From positions 1-60,422 of the forward strand of contig JBDRJV010000027.1 in NCBI GenBank assembly GCA_043814605.1: DNA of 60,422 nucleotides. Direction: 5' to 3'. The notes beneath the pieces are model-generated. The model did no database searches and had not been told where the DNA came from. It was given only the letters and a program-made list of their open reading frames with translations. This document shows, in pieces, positions 27,159-53,467 of this stretch (position 1 is its first letter; each line of letters begins with the position of its first letter). Both the position numbers and the translations under genes were made by a program. The DNA is from Candidatus Omnitrophota bacterium. GTDB taxonomy: Bacteria > Omnitrophota > Gorgyraeia > B26-G9.

Positions 27159-27887
27159 CTATACTGCTTTTGATAATTGTTTTTGCCGAGTAATTTCATA
27201 ACAAAGGATTGAAGTCGCTACTGCGGCATTTAAAGAAAGCTCTTGCCCGGGCATAGGCAAACTAAACTTAAAATCAACGCAAGCCAACACTCCGGGACGA
27301 ATCCCTTTATCTTCTGATCCAATTACAATACATAAAGGAAAAGTAAAAGAAGATTTCAATATATCCTGGCCATTTTTTGTTACCGCAGCGGATACCCAAT
27401 ATCCATTTTGTTTTAACTTTTCTAATGCAGGGATAATATTCGCGGTTAACACAACCGGGACATAATTTTCCCCGCCGCAAGCAATCCTTAATACTGTTTC
27501 ATTGATACTCACACTGCGATGCCTGGGAATAATTAAAGCAAATTCACCAAAACATGCAGCTGTCCTTAAAATTACTCCTAAATTCTGCGTATCGGTAATA
27601 TGGCTTAAAACGATAAAAGTATACTTGTTCTGAGGCTTAGAATTTAAAAGACCGTCTAAATCTGCATAAACAAAATCATCAATCTCAGCTGCAACTCCTT
27701 GAGAATTATAATGTTGGGATAGCTGGGATAGATCTTTAGCTTGAATAATATTAAATTGAATATTATTTTTTTCCGCTAATTCCTTAATTATATTAAAATC
27801 ACTACTTTTTTTTAAATAAATCTTTTTAATACTCTGGGGATTAGCTTTTATTCTTTCAATGATTTGATTTTTACCATATAAAAACAT
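27159..27887 (-). CDS. rlmB: TrmH/SpoU-family RNA 2'-O-methyltransferase (RlmB-like)
   Basis: 242 aa with an N-terminal substrate-binding domain (LYGKNQIIERI) and the SpoU methylase motifs (IVIGSEDKGIR, SLNAAVATSI). Confidence 0.75.
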   Translation of the reverse strand: MFLYGKNQIIERIKANPQSIKKIYLKKSSDFNIIKELAEKNNIQFNIIQAKDLSQLSQHYNSQGVAAEIDDFVYADLDGLLNSKPQNKYTFIVLSHITDTQNLGVILRTAACFGEFALIIPRHRSVSINETVLRIACGGENYVPVVLTANIIPALEKLKQNGYWVSAAVTKNGQDILKSSFTFPLCIVIGSEDKGIRPGVLACVDFKFSLPMPGQELSLNAAVATSILCYEITRQKQLSKAV

Positions 27888-27912
27888 AGTATGTTTCCCT
27901 CATAATAAGATT

Positions 27913-28020
27913 ATGGAACCCCCACGGGCTAAAGCCCGTGGTTCCTGGGGTGGAATACTCAAGCGGCCTCCTTTTATCCGCGCCATAAATGGGCGCGGTT
28001 TTAGGCCGCGGATGTATAAA
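27913..28020 (+). repeat. 108-nt GC-rich structured intergenic repeat, copy 1 of 3
   Basis: It differs from the copies at 47577-47684 (same orientation) and 53360-53467 (inverted) by one base each, and contains nested GC-rich hairpins. Confidence 0.9.
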
Positions 28021-28064: not shown

Positions 28065-29468
28065 CTATTGCAAAACAGGCAGGATAAGTTGAGCAACTTT
28101 AAAATATATTATCAGGCCAATAATATCAACAATGCTGGTTGTAATGGGGCCAGCTAATACAGCTGGGTCAAGGCCTATTTTTTTGGAAATAATCGGCAAT
28201 GAAATTCCTGTGCAAATAGCTAATAACACGATGAGAAACATTGTTAATCCGACAACGATTGCAACAAAGAAATCTTTTTGCAGTAAAATTGCCCGGATAA
28301 ACGCCACAATACCGACAATTACTCCCATTACTAAAGCTGCGCCAAATTCTAATTTGATCATACGTTTGAGATTATCAAAACTTACATCGCCGGTTGCTAA
28401 ACCGCGAATCACGGTAATTGAACTTTGTGTTCCCGCATTACCTCCTGTACCTAAAAGCATGGGAATAAAAAATACCAGTGCGACTGCGCTGTTTAAAGTG
28501 CTTTGGAATGTTTTTAGAATAGTTGCCGTAATAAAATCAAAGACTAACAAAAACATTAACCATCCGGCACGGCGGCTGATAATGTCTTTTACTGTAGCCG
28601 TTGTGTAAGTAATCATCTTCCCTTCACCCGCAGTCATTTTACCAACTTCGTAAATTTCTTTTGTTGCTTCTCTATCCATAATATCCACAATATCATCAAT
28701 TGTAATAACTCCCAGCAACTCACTATGTTGTTCATCAACAACCGGAGCTTCAATCAAATCATAGCGTTTAAAAAGTTGTGCTACTTCCTCATCCGGAGCA
28801 TACTCATTAATTTTAATAAAATCAGTACTTTCCATAATATCTTTGATTAACATATCCTGAGGCGCTTTAAATAAATCCTGTAATTCTACAAGTCCTAATA
28901 ATCGATGCTCTGTATCTGTAACATATATTGAACTAATATCTAAATCATCGTCAAAACTTAGGGTATCCTACAATTTTAAAATTGCCGCACGGGCGGTGTA
29001 TTCTTTTCTCAGCTCAATATAATCAGTGGTCATTAATGCACCGGCTGTCCCCTCTTCATAAGTAATCAGTTCACGCACATCTTCGACTTCTTCTTTTTTC
29101 ATCAATTTAAAAAACTTTTTCATCACCTTAGGCGGTAAATCCCGGAAAAGATTAGCACGGTCATCCGGCGCCATTTCATTTAAAACTTGAGAAACCTCCT
29201 CATTCTCTAAATTATCCAAGAGGTATGCCTGGTCAGCAAACTTAAGCGCTTCAAAAACTTCTATTGCTAAACGCGTACGCAAGAGTTTAAAAATTAAAAT
29301 TTTTTCTTGATTTTCAAATTTATGCCACCGTTCTGCTACATCAATAGAAGGAATTTTGGAAAGGACTGCTTTTACATCAGAAAACTTCTTTTCATTTAAA
29401 AGAGATTTGATTTCCGGGACAAAAAGCGCCGCAATATTTAACGATTTTTTACTGTTTTTTTTAGACAT
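28065..29468 (-). pseudogene. mgtE: Magnesium transporter MgtE interrupted by a single in-frame TAG (28968-28970)
   Basis: ORF 28968-29468 encodes the MgtE N-domain. ORF 28065-28853 encodes CBS2 plus the TM domain. Both are in the same frame, and the 117 nt between them translate to a CBS1-like segment (SSIYVTDTEHRLLGLVELQDL). Confidence 0.8.
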
Positions 29469-45727: not shown

Positions 45728-47408
<1,681 letters not shown>

Positions 47409-47490
47409 ATAATAAAATAAAAAAAGACATTTCCTCCTTGTTCAGGAAACGTCTTTGTTTCTTCCATATACAATACAAACATTGTATTGT
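47409..47490 (-). promoter_or_regulatory. ANTAR-type dual-hexaloop antiterminator overlapping an intrinsic terminator (gdhA leader)
   Basis: P1 is ACAAUAC[AAUGUU]GUAUUGU and P2 is GAAAC[AAAGAC]GUUUC. The 3' half of P2 forms the 5' arm of a 13-bp terminator stem that is followed by a U-tract. Confidence 0.65.
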
Positions 47491-47576: not shown

Positions 47577-47684
47577 ATGGAACCCCCACGGGCTAAAGCC
47601 TGTGGTTCCTGGGGTGGAATACTCAAGCGGCCTCCTTTTATCCGCGCCATAAATGGGCGCGGTTTTAGGCCGCGGATGTATAAA
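47577..47684 (+). repeat. 108-nt GC-rich structured intergenic repeat, copy 2 of 3
   Basis: Identical to copy 1 except T at 47601 (C at 27937). Confidence 0.9.
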
Positions 47685-47719: not shown

Positions 47720-48928
47720 TTATATACTAGATTTTTTAACTCCCTGATTCCAGCGATCTTTAAGTTTAGGATTATCAATCCAGGATAACAAGTATTTTGT
47801 ATATTCCTCTCCGGTTACTCCGGTATCCCTGCCGGTAATTATCATCTTTTTTTCAAATTGCCCGCAGATATCTAAAGCCATTTCTACTTTTTCTGCTTGA
47901 TTATTAAATCCAATATGTCTAATCAGCATTGCACTGGCACGAATCATAGAACAGGGATCAGCAAATTTTGCCCGCCCTTCTTTAACCATACGCGGCGCAC
48001 TGCCATGAATTGCTTCAAACATTGCCCATTTTTTCCCGATGTTTGCACTGCCAGCTGTACCTACGCCGCCTTGCATTTGCGCGGCTTCATCCGTTAAAAT
48101 ATCGCCGTAAAGATTCGGCAGAACTAACACCTTAAATTCTTTGCGCCTAGCCGGATCAATTAACTTTGCACTCATAATATCAACATACCACTCATCCAGT
48201 TTAATTTTCGGATATTCCCGGGCAACACGAAAAGCAACCCGGGAAAACCGGCCGTCTGTAGTTTTTATAACATTTGATTTGGTAACTACGGTCACACGGT
48301 TAATATTATTCTTCTTTGCATATTCAAAGGCCATACGAATAATACGCTCTGAACCTTGCTCTGTTATGACTTTAAAGTCTATACTCAAATTTTCGGAAAC
48401 ATCAAATCCTCTGGAACCTAAAACATAAGCCCCTTCTGTATTCTCTCTAAAAAAACACCAATCAATGCTTTCTTGAGGAATTTTTATTGGCCGTATATTA
48501 GCAAAAAGATCCAAATGCCGGCGCATGGCTACATTGGCGCTTTCAATGTTTGGCCACTTATCCCCAGCTTGCGGTGTTGTTGTCGGGCCTTTAAGAATTA
48601 CATGGCATGATTTTATTTCTTCGAGCACATCATCGGGAATTGCCTTTTTATGTTTAACCCTGTTTTCAATTGTTAATCCCGTAATATCTTTAAATTTAAT
48701 TTTTCCTTGAGCTATCTGAGTTTTTAACATATGTTCTAAAACTACTTGCGCATGTTTGGAAATAATTTCACCGATCCCATCGCCCCAGCAAATACCGATA
48801 ATAATCGGCGATAAAGTTGTATAATCCGGGCTCTGGACATCTTTTTTCATTTCTTCAACGCGTGCTAACTGCTCTTGGATTATAATTTTAAATTTTTCCT
48901 GTGCATTTTTTATCATTTCTTGCGACAT
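47720..48928 (-). CDS. icd: Isocitrate/isopropylmalate dehydrogenase family enzyme (probable isocitrate dehydrogenase)
   Basis: The family motif NLYGDILTDEAAQMQGGVGTAGSANIG is present. The ATG at 48928 with an AGAGGT SD is preferred over the upstream GTG at 48958. Confidence 0.7.
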   Translation of the reverse strand: MSQEMIKNAQEKFKIIIQEQLARVEEMKKDVQSPDYTTLSPIIIGICWGDGIGEIISKHAQVVLEHMLKTQIAQGKIKFKDITGLTIENRVKHKKAIPDDVLEEIKSCHVILKGPTTTPQAGDKWPNIESANVAMRRHLDLFANIRPIKIPQESIDWCFFRENTEGAYVLGSRGFDVSENLSIDFKVITEQGSERIIRMAFEYAKKNNINRVTVVTKSNVIKTTDGRFSRVAFRVAREYPKIKLDEWYVDIMSAKLIDPARRKEFKVLVLPNLYGDILTDEAAQMQGGVGTAGSANIGKKWAMFEAIHGSAPRMVKEGRAKFADPCSMIRASAMLIRHIGFNNQAEKVEMALDICGQFEKKMIITGRDTGVTGEEYTKYLLSWIDNPKLKDRWNQGVKKSSI

Positions 48929-49027
48929 TTTTTTACCTCTAATATTTTTTAAAATCACCTTTTCTTTTTCTTTAGATCAGTTTTTCCTTTAATACATTAT
49001 ACCCTAAATTATTATTTTTATAAACCT

Positions 49028-52729: not shown

Positions 52730-53358
52730 ATTTTTGATACTTTTTTTAGCTCAAATAATTTTTGAAATTTTAATATATTAGCAGTCAGTTTGTTTTGCTT
52801 CTGCAATGCAGATATAGCGCAGAGCATATCTACTTCTGTATCAATAACTGCCTGTGCATTATTCAGATCAATTCCGCCAATTGCAACAATTGGGACAGAT
52901 ATTCTTTGTCTAACGTTCCTGAGGACATTGATGCCTATATTTTTTATATCCGGTTTTGCCTGTGTAGGAAACACCGGGCCAATCCCGATATAATCAGCGC
53001 CCCTGTTTTGAGCTTCTTGGGCTTGTTCAAGGCTATGTGTACTCATCCCAATAATTTTATTTTTGCCTAAAATTTTCCGCGCTTTCTCAATCGGTAAATC
53101 ATCCTGCCCGAGATGCACCCCATCTGCTTCAGTTGCCTGCGCCAGATCAACTCGGTTATTAACAATAAATATTACTTCATGACAAAGTTTTTTAATCTTT
53201 AGAGCTTCTGCAAACATCTGCTGATCATTTAAATTTTTACTGCGGTATTGAATTATTTTCACGCCGGCAGCTAAAGCTGCTTGGACATCAGAAATATTTT
53301 TTTTAAGACTTAACTGAGCACATGTAATAAAATAAAATCCTTTTATATTAATTTTCAT
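52726..53358 (-). CDS. thiE: Thiamine-phosphate synthase
   Basis: ThiE motifs are present (GVHLGQDDLP, GIGPVFPTQAKPD). The ATG at 53358 is preferred because the 11 extra track codons are read out of the 108-nt repeat. Confidence 0.88.
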   Translation of the reverse strand: MKINIKGFYFITCAQLSLKKNISDVQAALAAGVKIIQYRSKNLNDQQMFAEALKIKKLCHEVIFIVNNRVDLAQATEADGVHLGQDDLPIEKARKILGKNKIIGMSTHSLEQAQEAQNRGADYIGIGPVFPTQAKPDIKNIGINVLRNVRQRISVPIVAIGGIDLNNAQAVIDTEVDMLCAISALQKQNKLTANILKFQKLFELKKVSKI

Positions 53359-53359
53359 T

Positions 53360-53467
53360 TTTATACATCCGCGGCCTAAAACCGTGCCCATTTATGGCGC
53401 GGATAAAAGGAGGCCGCTTGAGTATTCCACCCCAGGAACCACGGGCTTTAGCCCGTGGGGGTTCCAT
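53360..53467 (-). repeat. 108-nt GC-rich structured intergenic repeat, copy 3 of 3 (inverted)
   Basis: It is the reverse complement of copy 1 except T at 53385. It ends 1 nt before the thiE ATG. Confidence 0.9.

Follow-up and report, generated by a model that had tools for sequence, protein, structure and literature searches.

Palindrome-associated transposable elements (PATEs) are ORF-less derivatives of IS200/IS605 insertion sequences, and REPINs are thought to be moved by RAYT (TnpA-REP) tyrosine transposases. In IS200/IS605 elements, the left end is invariably inserted into single-stranded DNA, just 3' of a tetra- or pentanucleotide that is specific to the element (PMC5027513), and ORF-less PATEs are mobilised in trans (PMC10055086). 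A 108-nt repeat of a Candidatus Omnitrophota genome was compared with these systems, and is very probably a mobile, non-coding, structured element.

The repeat was analysed in a window of 60,422 nt (the whole stretch of DNA under study), which is contig C27 of a 2.35 Mb assembly of 47 contigs (the source genome). Three copies in both orientations, each one base away from the first, had been proposed by a sequence-only reading of the window. All three were located exactly, and dinucleotide-preserving shuffles of the sequence gave 0 matches to the repeat. The copies and their neighbour genes were mapped as follows:

27913-28020, + strand: copy 1, the exact sequence of the 108-nt repeat (exact match; sharp borders in the flank alignment; covariance model score 129 bits)
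47577-47684 (putative insert 47579-47681), + strand: copy 2, one mismatch relative to copy 1
53360-53467 (putative insert 53363-53465), - strand: copy 3, one mismatch relative to copy 1
27159-27887, - strand: SpoU/RlmB-type RNA methyltransferase gene (Pfam PF00588 and PF08032), start 25 nt from copy 1
28065-28853, - strand: gene with CBS and MgtE transporter domains (Pfam PF01769 and PF00571), stop 44 nt from copy 1
45728-47137, - strand: Glu/Leu/Phe/Val dehydrogenase-family gene, neighbour of copy 2
47720-48958, - strand: isocitrate/isopropylmalate dehydrogenase-family gene, neighbour of copy 2

Any two of the three copies differ by no more than two bases. When their 100-nt flanks were aligned, identity fell off abruptly at both borders. 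The ORF and Pfam map places copy 1 between the stop of the CBS and MgtE domain gene and the start of the SpoU/RlmB-type methyltransferase gene, in agreement with the earlier assignment to an mgtE-rlmB spacer, and the G+C content of the element (56%, versus ~34% for the window) bears out the richness that had been described. Copy 3 is among the few copies co-directional with their flanking genes, and ends 4 nt upstream of the probable ATG of a thiamine-phosphate synthase gene.

In the source genome, BLASTN located ~28 copies of full or almost full length; they are 93-100% identical and are spread over 15 contigs and both strands, so that near-identical copies do exist beyond the window. One further copy is internally deleted (C7:192279-192354) and another has 20 extra nt within the hairpin 1 loop (C12:8783-8911). 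The contig ends of C10 and C32 fall inside copies: C10:30-137 and C32:1-102, whose ends differ at several positions, are probably one locus split at a contig break. Repeats normally break assemblies in this way, and such contig ends do not point to an artefact from which the repeat arose. On gene maps that were crude ORF maps, of genomes that are mostly MAGs, the source-genome copies were intergenic or overlapped an ORF solely in a doubtful 5' extension. Their flanks were unrelated, except for an A directly before ATGG in 22 of 27 cases. Exact-protein look-ups with two flanking genes returned no record from other strains, and metagenome scans for the empty site of copy 1 and for the core of the source-genome subfamily returned no matches.

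Relatives at 75-80% identity were detected by BLAST in three genomes from other families, and a covariance model of the repeat was built from ten sequences. With this model, the family was found in 74 of 401 Omnitrophota genomes (about a fifth), representing 61 of 282 genera, and all matches except one lay within the class of the window. With laxer filters, the richest genomes carried 47, 29 and 24 copies. A degenerate pattern scan of one genome per species (185,579 species) gave 71 matches, nearly all in records titled Candidatus Omnitrophota or Omnitrophica; the other labels were approximately ten automatic Planctomycetes-type, one Paceibacterota and one Thermoanaerobaculia. Every genome has its own near-identical subfamily of the element. 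On balance, the repeat is probably a gene-less mobile element specific to Omnitrophota.

The repeat was also compared with described families. When the window was searched against Rfam 15, tRNAs alone passed (three), and at permissive thresholds (E up to 10) the best match to the element reached 20.8 bits against a cut-off of 80; the repeat therefore matches no Rfam family. It likewise matched the ends of no transposase-bearing element. No conserved neighbouring gene or protein family was found beside the copies across genomes, and a literature search by phylum name found nothing on Omnitrophota repeats.

For the comparison of filled and empty sites, thirteen loci of the genome with 47 copies (G329) were searched with their flanks in three sister species of the same genus (G354, G033 and G299). 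Five sites were precisely empty in G354, the flanks of which are ~90% identical, with the position of the insert (^) as follows:

Site 1: AGGAAAAT^AAAAGCG
Site 2: AGAAAGAT^TAAAATT
Site 3: AAAAAAAT^AAAGGAT
Site 4: AACAAAT^AAAAATC
Site 5: AAAAAGAT^CAAGGCT

An empty ARAT^NAA site thus corresponds to a filled site that reads ...ARAT, then the insert G(G/A)AGCC...GAATGTAT, then NAA... Some of the sister-species sites hold other inserts or an internally deleted copy. Such exact differences between sister species, with an orthologous site filled in one and empty in another, demonstrate the mobility of the family. Together with the copies and their distribution, the empty sites uphold one of the two readings offered from the sequence, a REP/MITE-like mobile element. 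At the locus of copy 1, the rlmB-mgtE adjacency is kept in all 17 other genomes of the bacterial family, with the element present in 0 of the 17, and the spacer measures 77 nt in one of them (G002), whereas the matching stretch of the source genome measures ~185 nt (177 nt from ORF to ORF).

By analogy with the filled and empty sites, the insert of copy 1 would extend from G3 to T105 of the repeat, and the leading AT and trailing AAA would be target sequence. The 108-nt repeat proposed earlier is therefore real and sharply bordered, but would not be the inserted unit itself. The corresponding features are:

27910-27914, + strand: putative left target half-site ATTAT (family consensus A-A-A-T before the cut)
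27915-28017, + strand: inferred mobile insert of copy 1, GGAACC...GGATGTAT, 103 nt (analogy with filled and empty sites, and flank profiles)
28018-28020, + strand: putative right target half-site AAA

The family target profile, drawn from 123-152 distinct copies, is A(54%) A(79%) A(88%) T ^ A(84%) A(95%) A(82%), in which the three bases after GTAT are from 152 distinct copies. The right-end variants GTATTAA and GTATCAA reflect the local flank, as TAA and CAA were already in the empty alleles. Because AT occurs at both junctions, the boundary of the insert can slide by 2 nt. The junctions share only this dinucleotide and carry no classical target duplication; a TA or a 3-nt duplication was ruled out by the junction sequences. 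Terminal inverted repeats were absent from all subfamilies: GGAACC... and ...GGATGTAT are not complementary. The earlier statement that inverted ends and target duplications are lacking was therefore correct, and both features are likewise lacking in IS200/IS605 elements (IS608, ISDra2) and PATEs. Also as in these systems, the left end of the element abuts a short target (A-R-A-T) and the right end closes with a related motif (G-T-A-T). To our knowledge, no insertion target defined by exact junctions, such as that of the element, has been shown for REPs.

The target contains TAA; therefore, co-directional copies very often have an upstream stop codon within 20 nt, and copies often land in or beside a Lys-stop (AAA TAA). 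Ten ORFs end with a lysine codon followed by a TGA that is made by the T of the flank and the GA of the element (element positions 2-4), and subfamilies that start with GA restore a TGA stop codon.

The insert folds into two hairpin domains, and the two hairpins that had been drawn from the sequence are those backed by the comparative analysis (covariation and RNAalifold). The structural features of copy 1 are:

27915-27945 (positions 3-33), + strand: domain 1 hairpin GGAA(CCC)CCACGGGC-TAAA-GCCCGTGG-TTCC (helices 1 and 2)
27946-27954, + strand: variable linker (TGGGGTGGA) between the domains (poorly conserved, length-variable columns)
27955-28017 (positions 43-105), + strand: domain 2 three-tier stem (ATACTC/GA-GTAT, GCGGCCT/AGGCCGC and CCGCGCC/GGCGCGG)
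27978-28002, + strand: inner hairpin of domain 2 followed by TTTT (read from sequence and fold)

The basal pair of domain 1 begins at the left end of the insert, and the basal pair of domain 2 (basal helix ATAC/GTAT; internal loop TCCTTTTAT / TTTTA) terminates at its right end. A hairpin domain at each end, on one strand, is shared with IS200/IS605 elements and PATEs. In contrast to IS608, the ends of which resemble each other, the left and right hairpins of the element are dissimilar, and their bases lie at the cut sites, with no obvious room for a left guide tetranucleotide. Folding of either strand was markedly more favourable than that of shuffled sequence (z = -3.6 and -4.5), and the domain 2 stem was seen in the MFE fold.

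Covariation was assessed in 97 model-aligned copies (90 distinct), in which cells are not independent events. Changes on both sides were found in 24 of 25 pairs: in 11 of 11 pairs of domain 1 (model helices 1 and 2, with 89-90% of cells paired) and in 13 of 14 pairs of domain 2 (helices 3 and 4). Paired cells amounted to 90.5%, versus 77.6% for column shuffles and 36-50% with slid partners, and 255 double-change cells were observed versus 70 expected. Since the 97-copy alignment was fitted to the model, an independent alignment was also made with MAFFT from one copy of each of 32 genomes and was analysed with RNAalifold. The stems found again in this way were the inner stem of hairpin 1 and, in domain 2, the inner stem and a portion of the outer one, with compensatory changes in 12 of 15 pairs. 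The fold is thus kept by compensatory substitutions across the class. In the window, the single C-to-T change of copy 2 makes a G-C pair of hairpin 1 a G.T, and the single G-to-A change of copy 3 disrupts one pair of the domain 2 inner hairpin.

The mismatched pairs indicate the strand concerned. G.U pairs outnumbered A.C/C.A pairs by 147:53 in all copies, by 56:23 on per-genome consensus sequences and by 51:22 among within-genome deviations; a hand count on the smaller MAFFT set gave the same direction more weakly (24:15). It follows from the excess of G.U over A.C that selection maintains the fold on the ATGGAAC ('top') strand. This strand is C-rich in the source genome, and the skew would if anything favour the opposite pair bias. 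A protein-coding reading was rejected: the + strand of the copy is open for 36 codons from ATG, but the ATG, frame and length are not conserved in relatives, and the counterpart of this frame in G349 reads ATG GAG CCC CAC CCG GGC TAA.

Single-strand mobilisation by a Y1-type enzyme is tentatively proposed, at somewhat less than even confidence. The element would move as single-stranded DNA of the top strand, and a HUH/Y1 transposase that recognises hairpins, and whose gene lies elsewhere in the genome, would act on it in trans. The enzyme would cut 3' of ARAT on the left and 3' of GTAT on the right, and the excised strand would be pasted 3' of another ARAT site. The junction of the excision circle would then read GTAT-GGAA (...GGATGTAT joined to GGAACCCC...).

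Y1 is the sole tested candidate that was always present and it fits the anatomy of IS200/IS605 elements and PATEs; its action in trans was inferred on these grounds. Genes of this type were found in 18 of 18 element-rich genomes tested and in 16 of 20 element-free genomes. In the source genome there are 12 Y1/HUH (PF01797) genes: one IS200-like, several long RAYT-like and several short RAYT-like, the last of which adjoin GTAG-tagged hairpins of another kind than the element. The Y1 proteins of ~165 aa from nine element-rich loci were nearest to the product of the RAYT-like gene C47:24444-25289. Homologues of this gene were present in 68 of 74 element-positive and 238 of 327 element-negative genomes (odds ratio 4.2, p = 2e-4, kinship ignored). 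Since 306 of the 401 genomes of the phylum carry Y1, which makes it nearly ubiquitous, the association with the element is weak.

Only one source-genome copy adjoins a Y1 gene, as would be expected by chance ~30% of the time: a diverged copy lies 58 nt downstream of C47:24444-25289, with none upstream (~0.3 such cases expected by chance). No Y1 gene was found within 1-1.5 kb of ~95 copies in other genomes, and 17 Y1 loci had no element-like ends beside them, apart from one whole copy downstream of a RAYT-like gene. Parent elements were sought in several ways: no left-end and right-end halves enclosing a long interior were found as a pair, the source assembly had no multi-copy transposase ORF, and no autonomous element with the same ends was present in the genomes examined (MAGs, in which absence is not proof).

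An enzyme that has gone unrecognised (a small homing-type nuclease or another HUH class), hairpin-specific and acting on an IS200/IS605-like substrate, is an unlikely alternative, albeit the best placed of the rivals to Y1. It would accommodate the lack of a parent element and of a specific Y1 partner, the cuts made exactly at the bases of both helices and an orientation behaviour that differs from that of IS608. For IS608, a lagging-strand-template rule applies, from which the source genome seems to depart: of 29 copies, 21 have their top strand on the C-rich strand, contrary to the IS608 expectation if the G-rich strand is the leading one (origins unmapped). No positive evidence speaks for such an enzyme, however, and Y1, present in every element-rich genome tested, is simpler.

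A broader joint reading, slightly less probable again, is that the features belong to an undescribed transposition system, in which a strand-specific two-hairpin element is cut at its helix bases and guides its own targeting. Within this reading, base pairing to the T-rich internal loop conserved in domain 2 could select the AAAT^AAA target; the enzyme could be either a RAYT-like Y1 protein that works at a distance from its own gene or one that has gone unrecognised; and the element could be a partner of Omnitrophota that has been vertically inherited since the origin of the class.

Movement as double-stranded DNA is considered quite unlikely. Here, a recombinase (IS607-type serine, IS110-type or other) would exchange strands at the shared 2-bp AT core. 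The AT, which filled sites show at each junction and empty sites a single time, is consistent with this, as is the lack of inverted ends, which IS607 and IS110 elements also lack. Resolvase-domain genes were found in 8 of 10 element-rich genomes, including the source genome (a 193-aa protein), but these were mostly large serine recombinases of ~550 aa, and they were missing from G349 (12 copies) and from G354. The IS110 transposase domain (PF01548) was present in 2 of the 10 genomes, absent from the other 8 and absent from the source genome, and TnpB (PF07282), the usual partner of IS607, was detected in 0 of the 10. Furthermore, double-stranded exchange leaves the hairpin covariation with its strand-specific G.T excess unexplained, and in the G051 subfamily GT stands as the left dinucleotide and does not recur on the right.

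That the repeat is primarily a structured RNA (a multicopy small RNA, or a cis-acting mRNA stabiliser, processing site or terminator) which spread secondarily is improbable, although the strong covariation, including a conserved G.U pair, would suit it. The inner hairpin of domain 2, followed by U4 in a transcript, also looks like an intrinsic terminator, on the + strand alone, as judged from sequence and predicted fold. In the source genome, the top strand is antisense to co-directional neighbour genes in ~19 of 23 cases, a bias of ~19:4 that runs against target availability (AAATAAA: 296 sense versus 162 antisense, p = 5e-6), so that the supply of targets was rejected as its cause. A role as intrinsic terminator of the neighbour genes in this genome was discarded: the hairpin and T4 are on the opposite strand in these ~19 of 23 cases, copy 1 included, where the terminator-like hairpin points against flanking genes that are both on the - strand. 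Replication strand as the cause of orientation was unsupported by the two informative copies, in which the genes oppose the GC skew and the orientation follows the genes and not the skew. It is possible that selection against the + strand hairpin and T4 inside operons causes the source-genome bias, with G329 unaccounted for.

In other genomes the orientation is mixed. G176, G005 and G051 behave like the source genome, G329 is mostly sense, and the overall count outside the source genome is 27 sense and 22 antisense; in G176, a complete genome, the orientation of the element switches between chromosome halves. That the selected strand is antisense here and sense in G329 argues against a function borne by mRNA as what preserves the top-strand fold. 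The flanks being unrelated, no promoter travels with the element. The multicopy small-RNA gene that the sequence-only reading had offered as its second option is accordingly not supported. A structured RNA is further opposed by the Rfam result, by the lack of a conserved position or neighbour gene, by the empty orthologous sites of the sister species and by the persistence of internally deleted copies.

An origin as a classical MITE, from an insertion sequence with a DDE transposase, is scarcely credible: the size, the intergenic location and the multi-copy nature fit, but the ends (GGAACC... and ...GATGTAT) do not form inverted repeats, duplication is limited to the 2-nt AT with TA excluded, and the true MITEs among Correia/NEMIS, BOX, RUP and ERIC have both inverted ends and TA or longer duplications.

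The preferred reading, held to be moderately probable, is that the element is non-autonomous, strand-specific and of the same kind as IS200/IS605 PATEs or REPINs. Like IS200/IS605 derivatives and PATEs, the element is non-coding, multi-copy and presumably moved in trans. Unlike them, it has no autonomous tnpA/tnpB element with its ends, and the family is conserved across a whole class and not tied to one IS. Its resemblance to REP, REPIN and BIME sequences lies in G+C-rich intergenic hairpin repeats that form genome-specific, near-identical populations and last in the lineage, and in the abundance of RAYT-like Y1 genes in its genomes. In contrast to REPs, which are 20-40-nt palindromes or an inverted doublet of them, the element is 103 nt long with two different hairpins in direct order, it has neither a GTAG nor a CGTC tag, and its copies, one of which adjoins a RAYT-like gene on the downstream side, do not appear to flank such genes. 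With the Correia/NEMIS, BOX, RUP and ERIC sequences, it shares the nature of a small structured intergenic repeat that supplies or disturbs terminators, start regions and stop codons. Since the element departs in one defining respect from PATEs and in one from REPINs, it was filed as new, akin to both and a member of neither: it is a new family of a familiar selfish-DNA kind.

Omnitrophota are uncultured, and the family provides a clean, testable case of a hairpin-dependent mobile element, with exact junctions, a defined 7-nt target, a strand-specific fold and dozens of subfamilies that serve as natural mutational data. For annotation, the copies matter because they restore stop codons, adjoin start codons and fragment assemblies. 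If the enzyme is a RAYT-like Y1 protein, a poorly understood group of proteins would be linked to a defined substrate outside the Proteobacteria.

Altered copies of the element were found in two forms. One copy in the source assembly, G000 (GCA_043814605.1), lying outside the window at contig C12:8783-8911, has its hairpin 1 interrupted precisely at the TAAA loop by 20 extra nucleotides (CTTGTCCCGCCTAAGCGGTG); the inserted sequence is itself a small hairpin, and is possibly another, very small element with the A-rich loop as its target. Other copies were internally deleted, with both ends kept and most of domain 2 (the three-tier stem) lost, and this same kind of deletion is of independent origin in two genomes.

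Internally deleted copies of the element
G033:C9:47858-47978, in a sister species of the element-rich genome G329 (locus L123)
G000:C7:192279-192354

Further repeats were located in the spacers that hold the element. The 439-nt spacer beside copy 2 also contains a 104-nt stretch (window 47310-47413; 92% identity to C6:15182-15285 of G000), which is a repeat family different from the element. At sites that are filled by the element in one species, sister species carried unrelated inserts of ~90-130 nt with hairpins of their own; the short spacers concerned look like hot spots shared by several repeat families.

Sites with unrelated inserts
G033:C15:10170-10410 (L131)
G033:C8:73350-73540 (L132)
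G354:C48:27660-27890 (L133)
G016:C112:12070-12340 (L143)

The Mg2+ transporter gene next to copy 1 (28065-29468, minus strand) is split into two ORFs on the same strand.

ORFs of the split Mg2+ transporter gene
28968-29468, minus strand, MgtE N-domain
28065-28853, minus strand, CBS and MgtE membrane domain

Copy 3 stops 4 nt short of what is probably the ATG of the thiamine-phosphate synthase gene (MKINIKGFYFITCAQ...; junction at window 53355-53363, minus strand), so that any ribosome-binding site of this gene would have to lie inside the right end of the element (GCGGAUGUAUAAAAAUG).

Contigs C10 (1-137) and C32 (1-131) of G000 both end within an element copy and have 29 nt of right flank in common, with a few differences; the two ends probably belong to a single locus at which the repeat, or variation between strains, interrupted the assembly. 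A stretch of 4.2 kb occurs in two places in G000 (C32:3867-8059 versus C42:6564-10749, 82.6% identity); either the two are paralogous, or one of them comes from a related strain and was binned with this genome. Two good copies came from assemblies labelled as other phyla, which could reflect mis-binning, mislabelling or horizontal transfer.

Copies labelled outside Omnitrophota
JBBABQ010000019.1, assembly labelled Paceibacterota (L155)
CAYQTL010000011.1, assembly labelled Thermoanaerobaculia (L159)

Finally, short (~180-aa) RAYT-like genes of the Y1 transposase type and their fragments form a group in G000.

Short RAYT-like Y1 genes and fragments
C45:15725-17051
C6:20599-21153
C7:112189-112482
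C28:3023-3223

GTAG-tagged, G+C-rich hairpins (e.g. GTAGGGGCCGG...CCGGCCC) adjoin them at three of these loci, and together the short genes and tagged hairpins are a REP-like system of G000 that is separate from the element.
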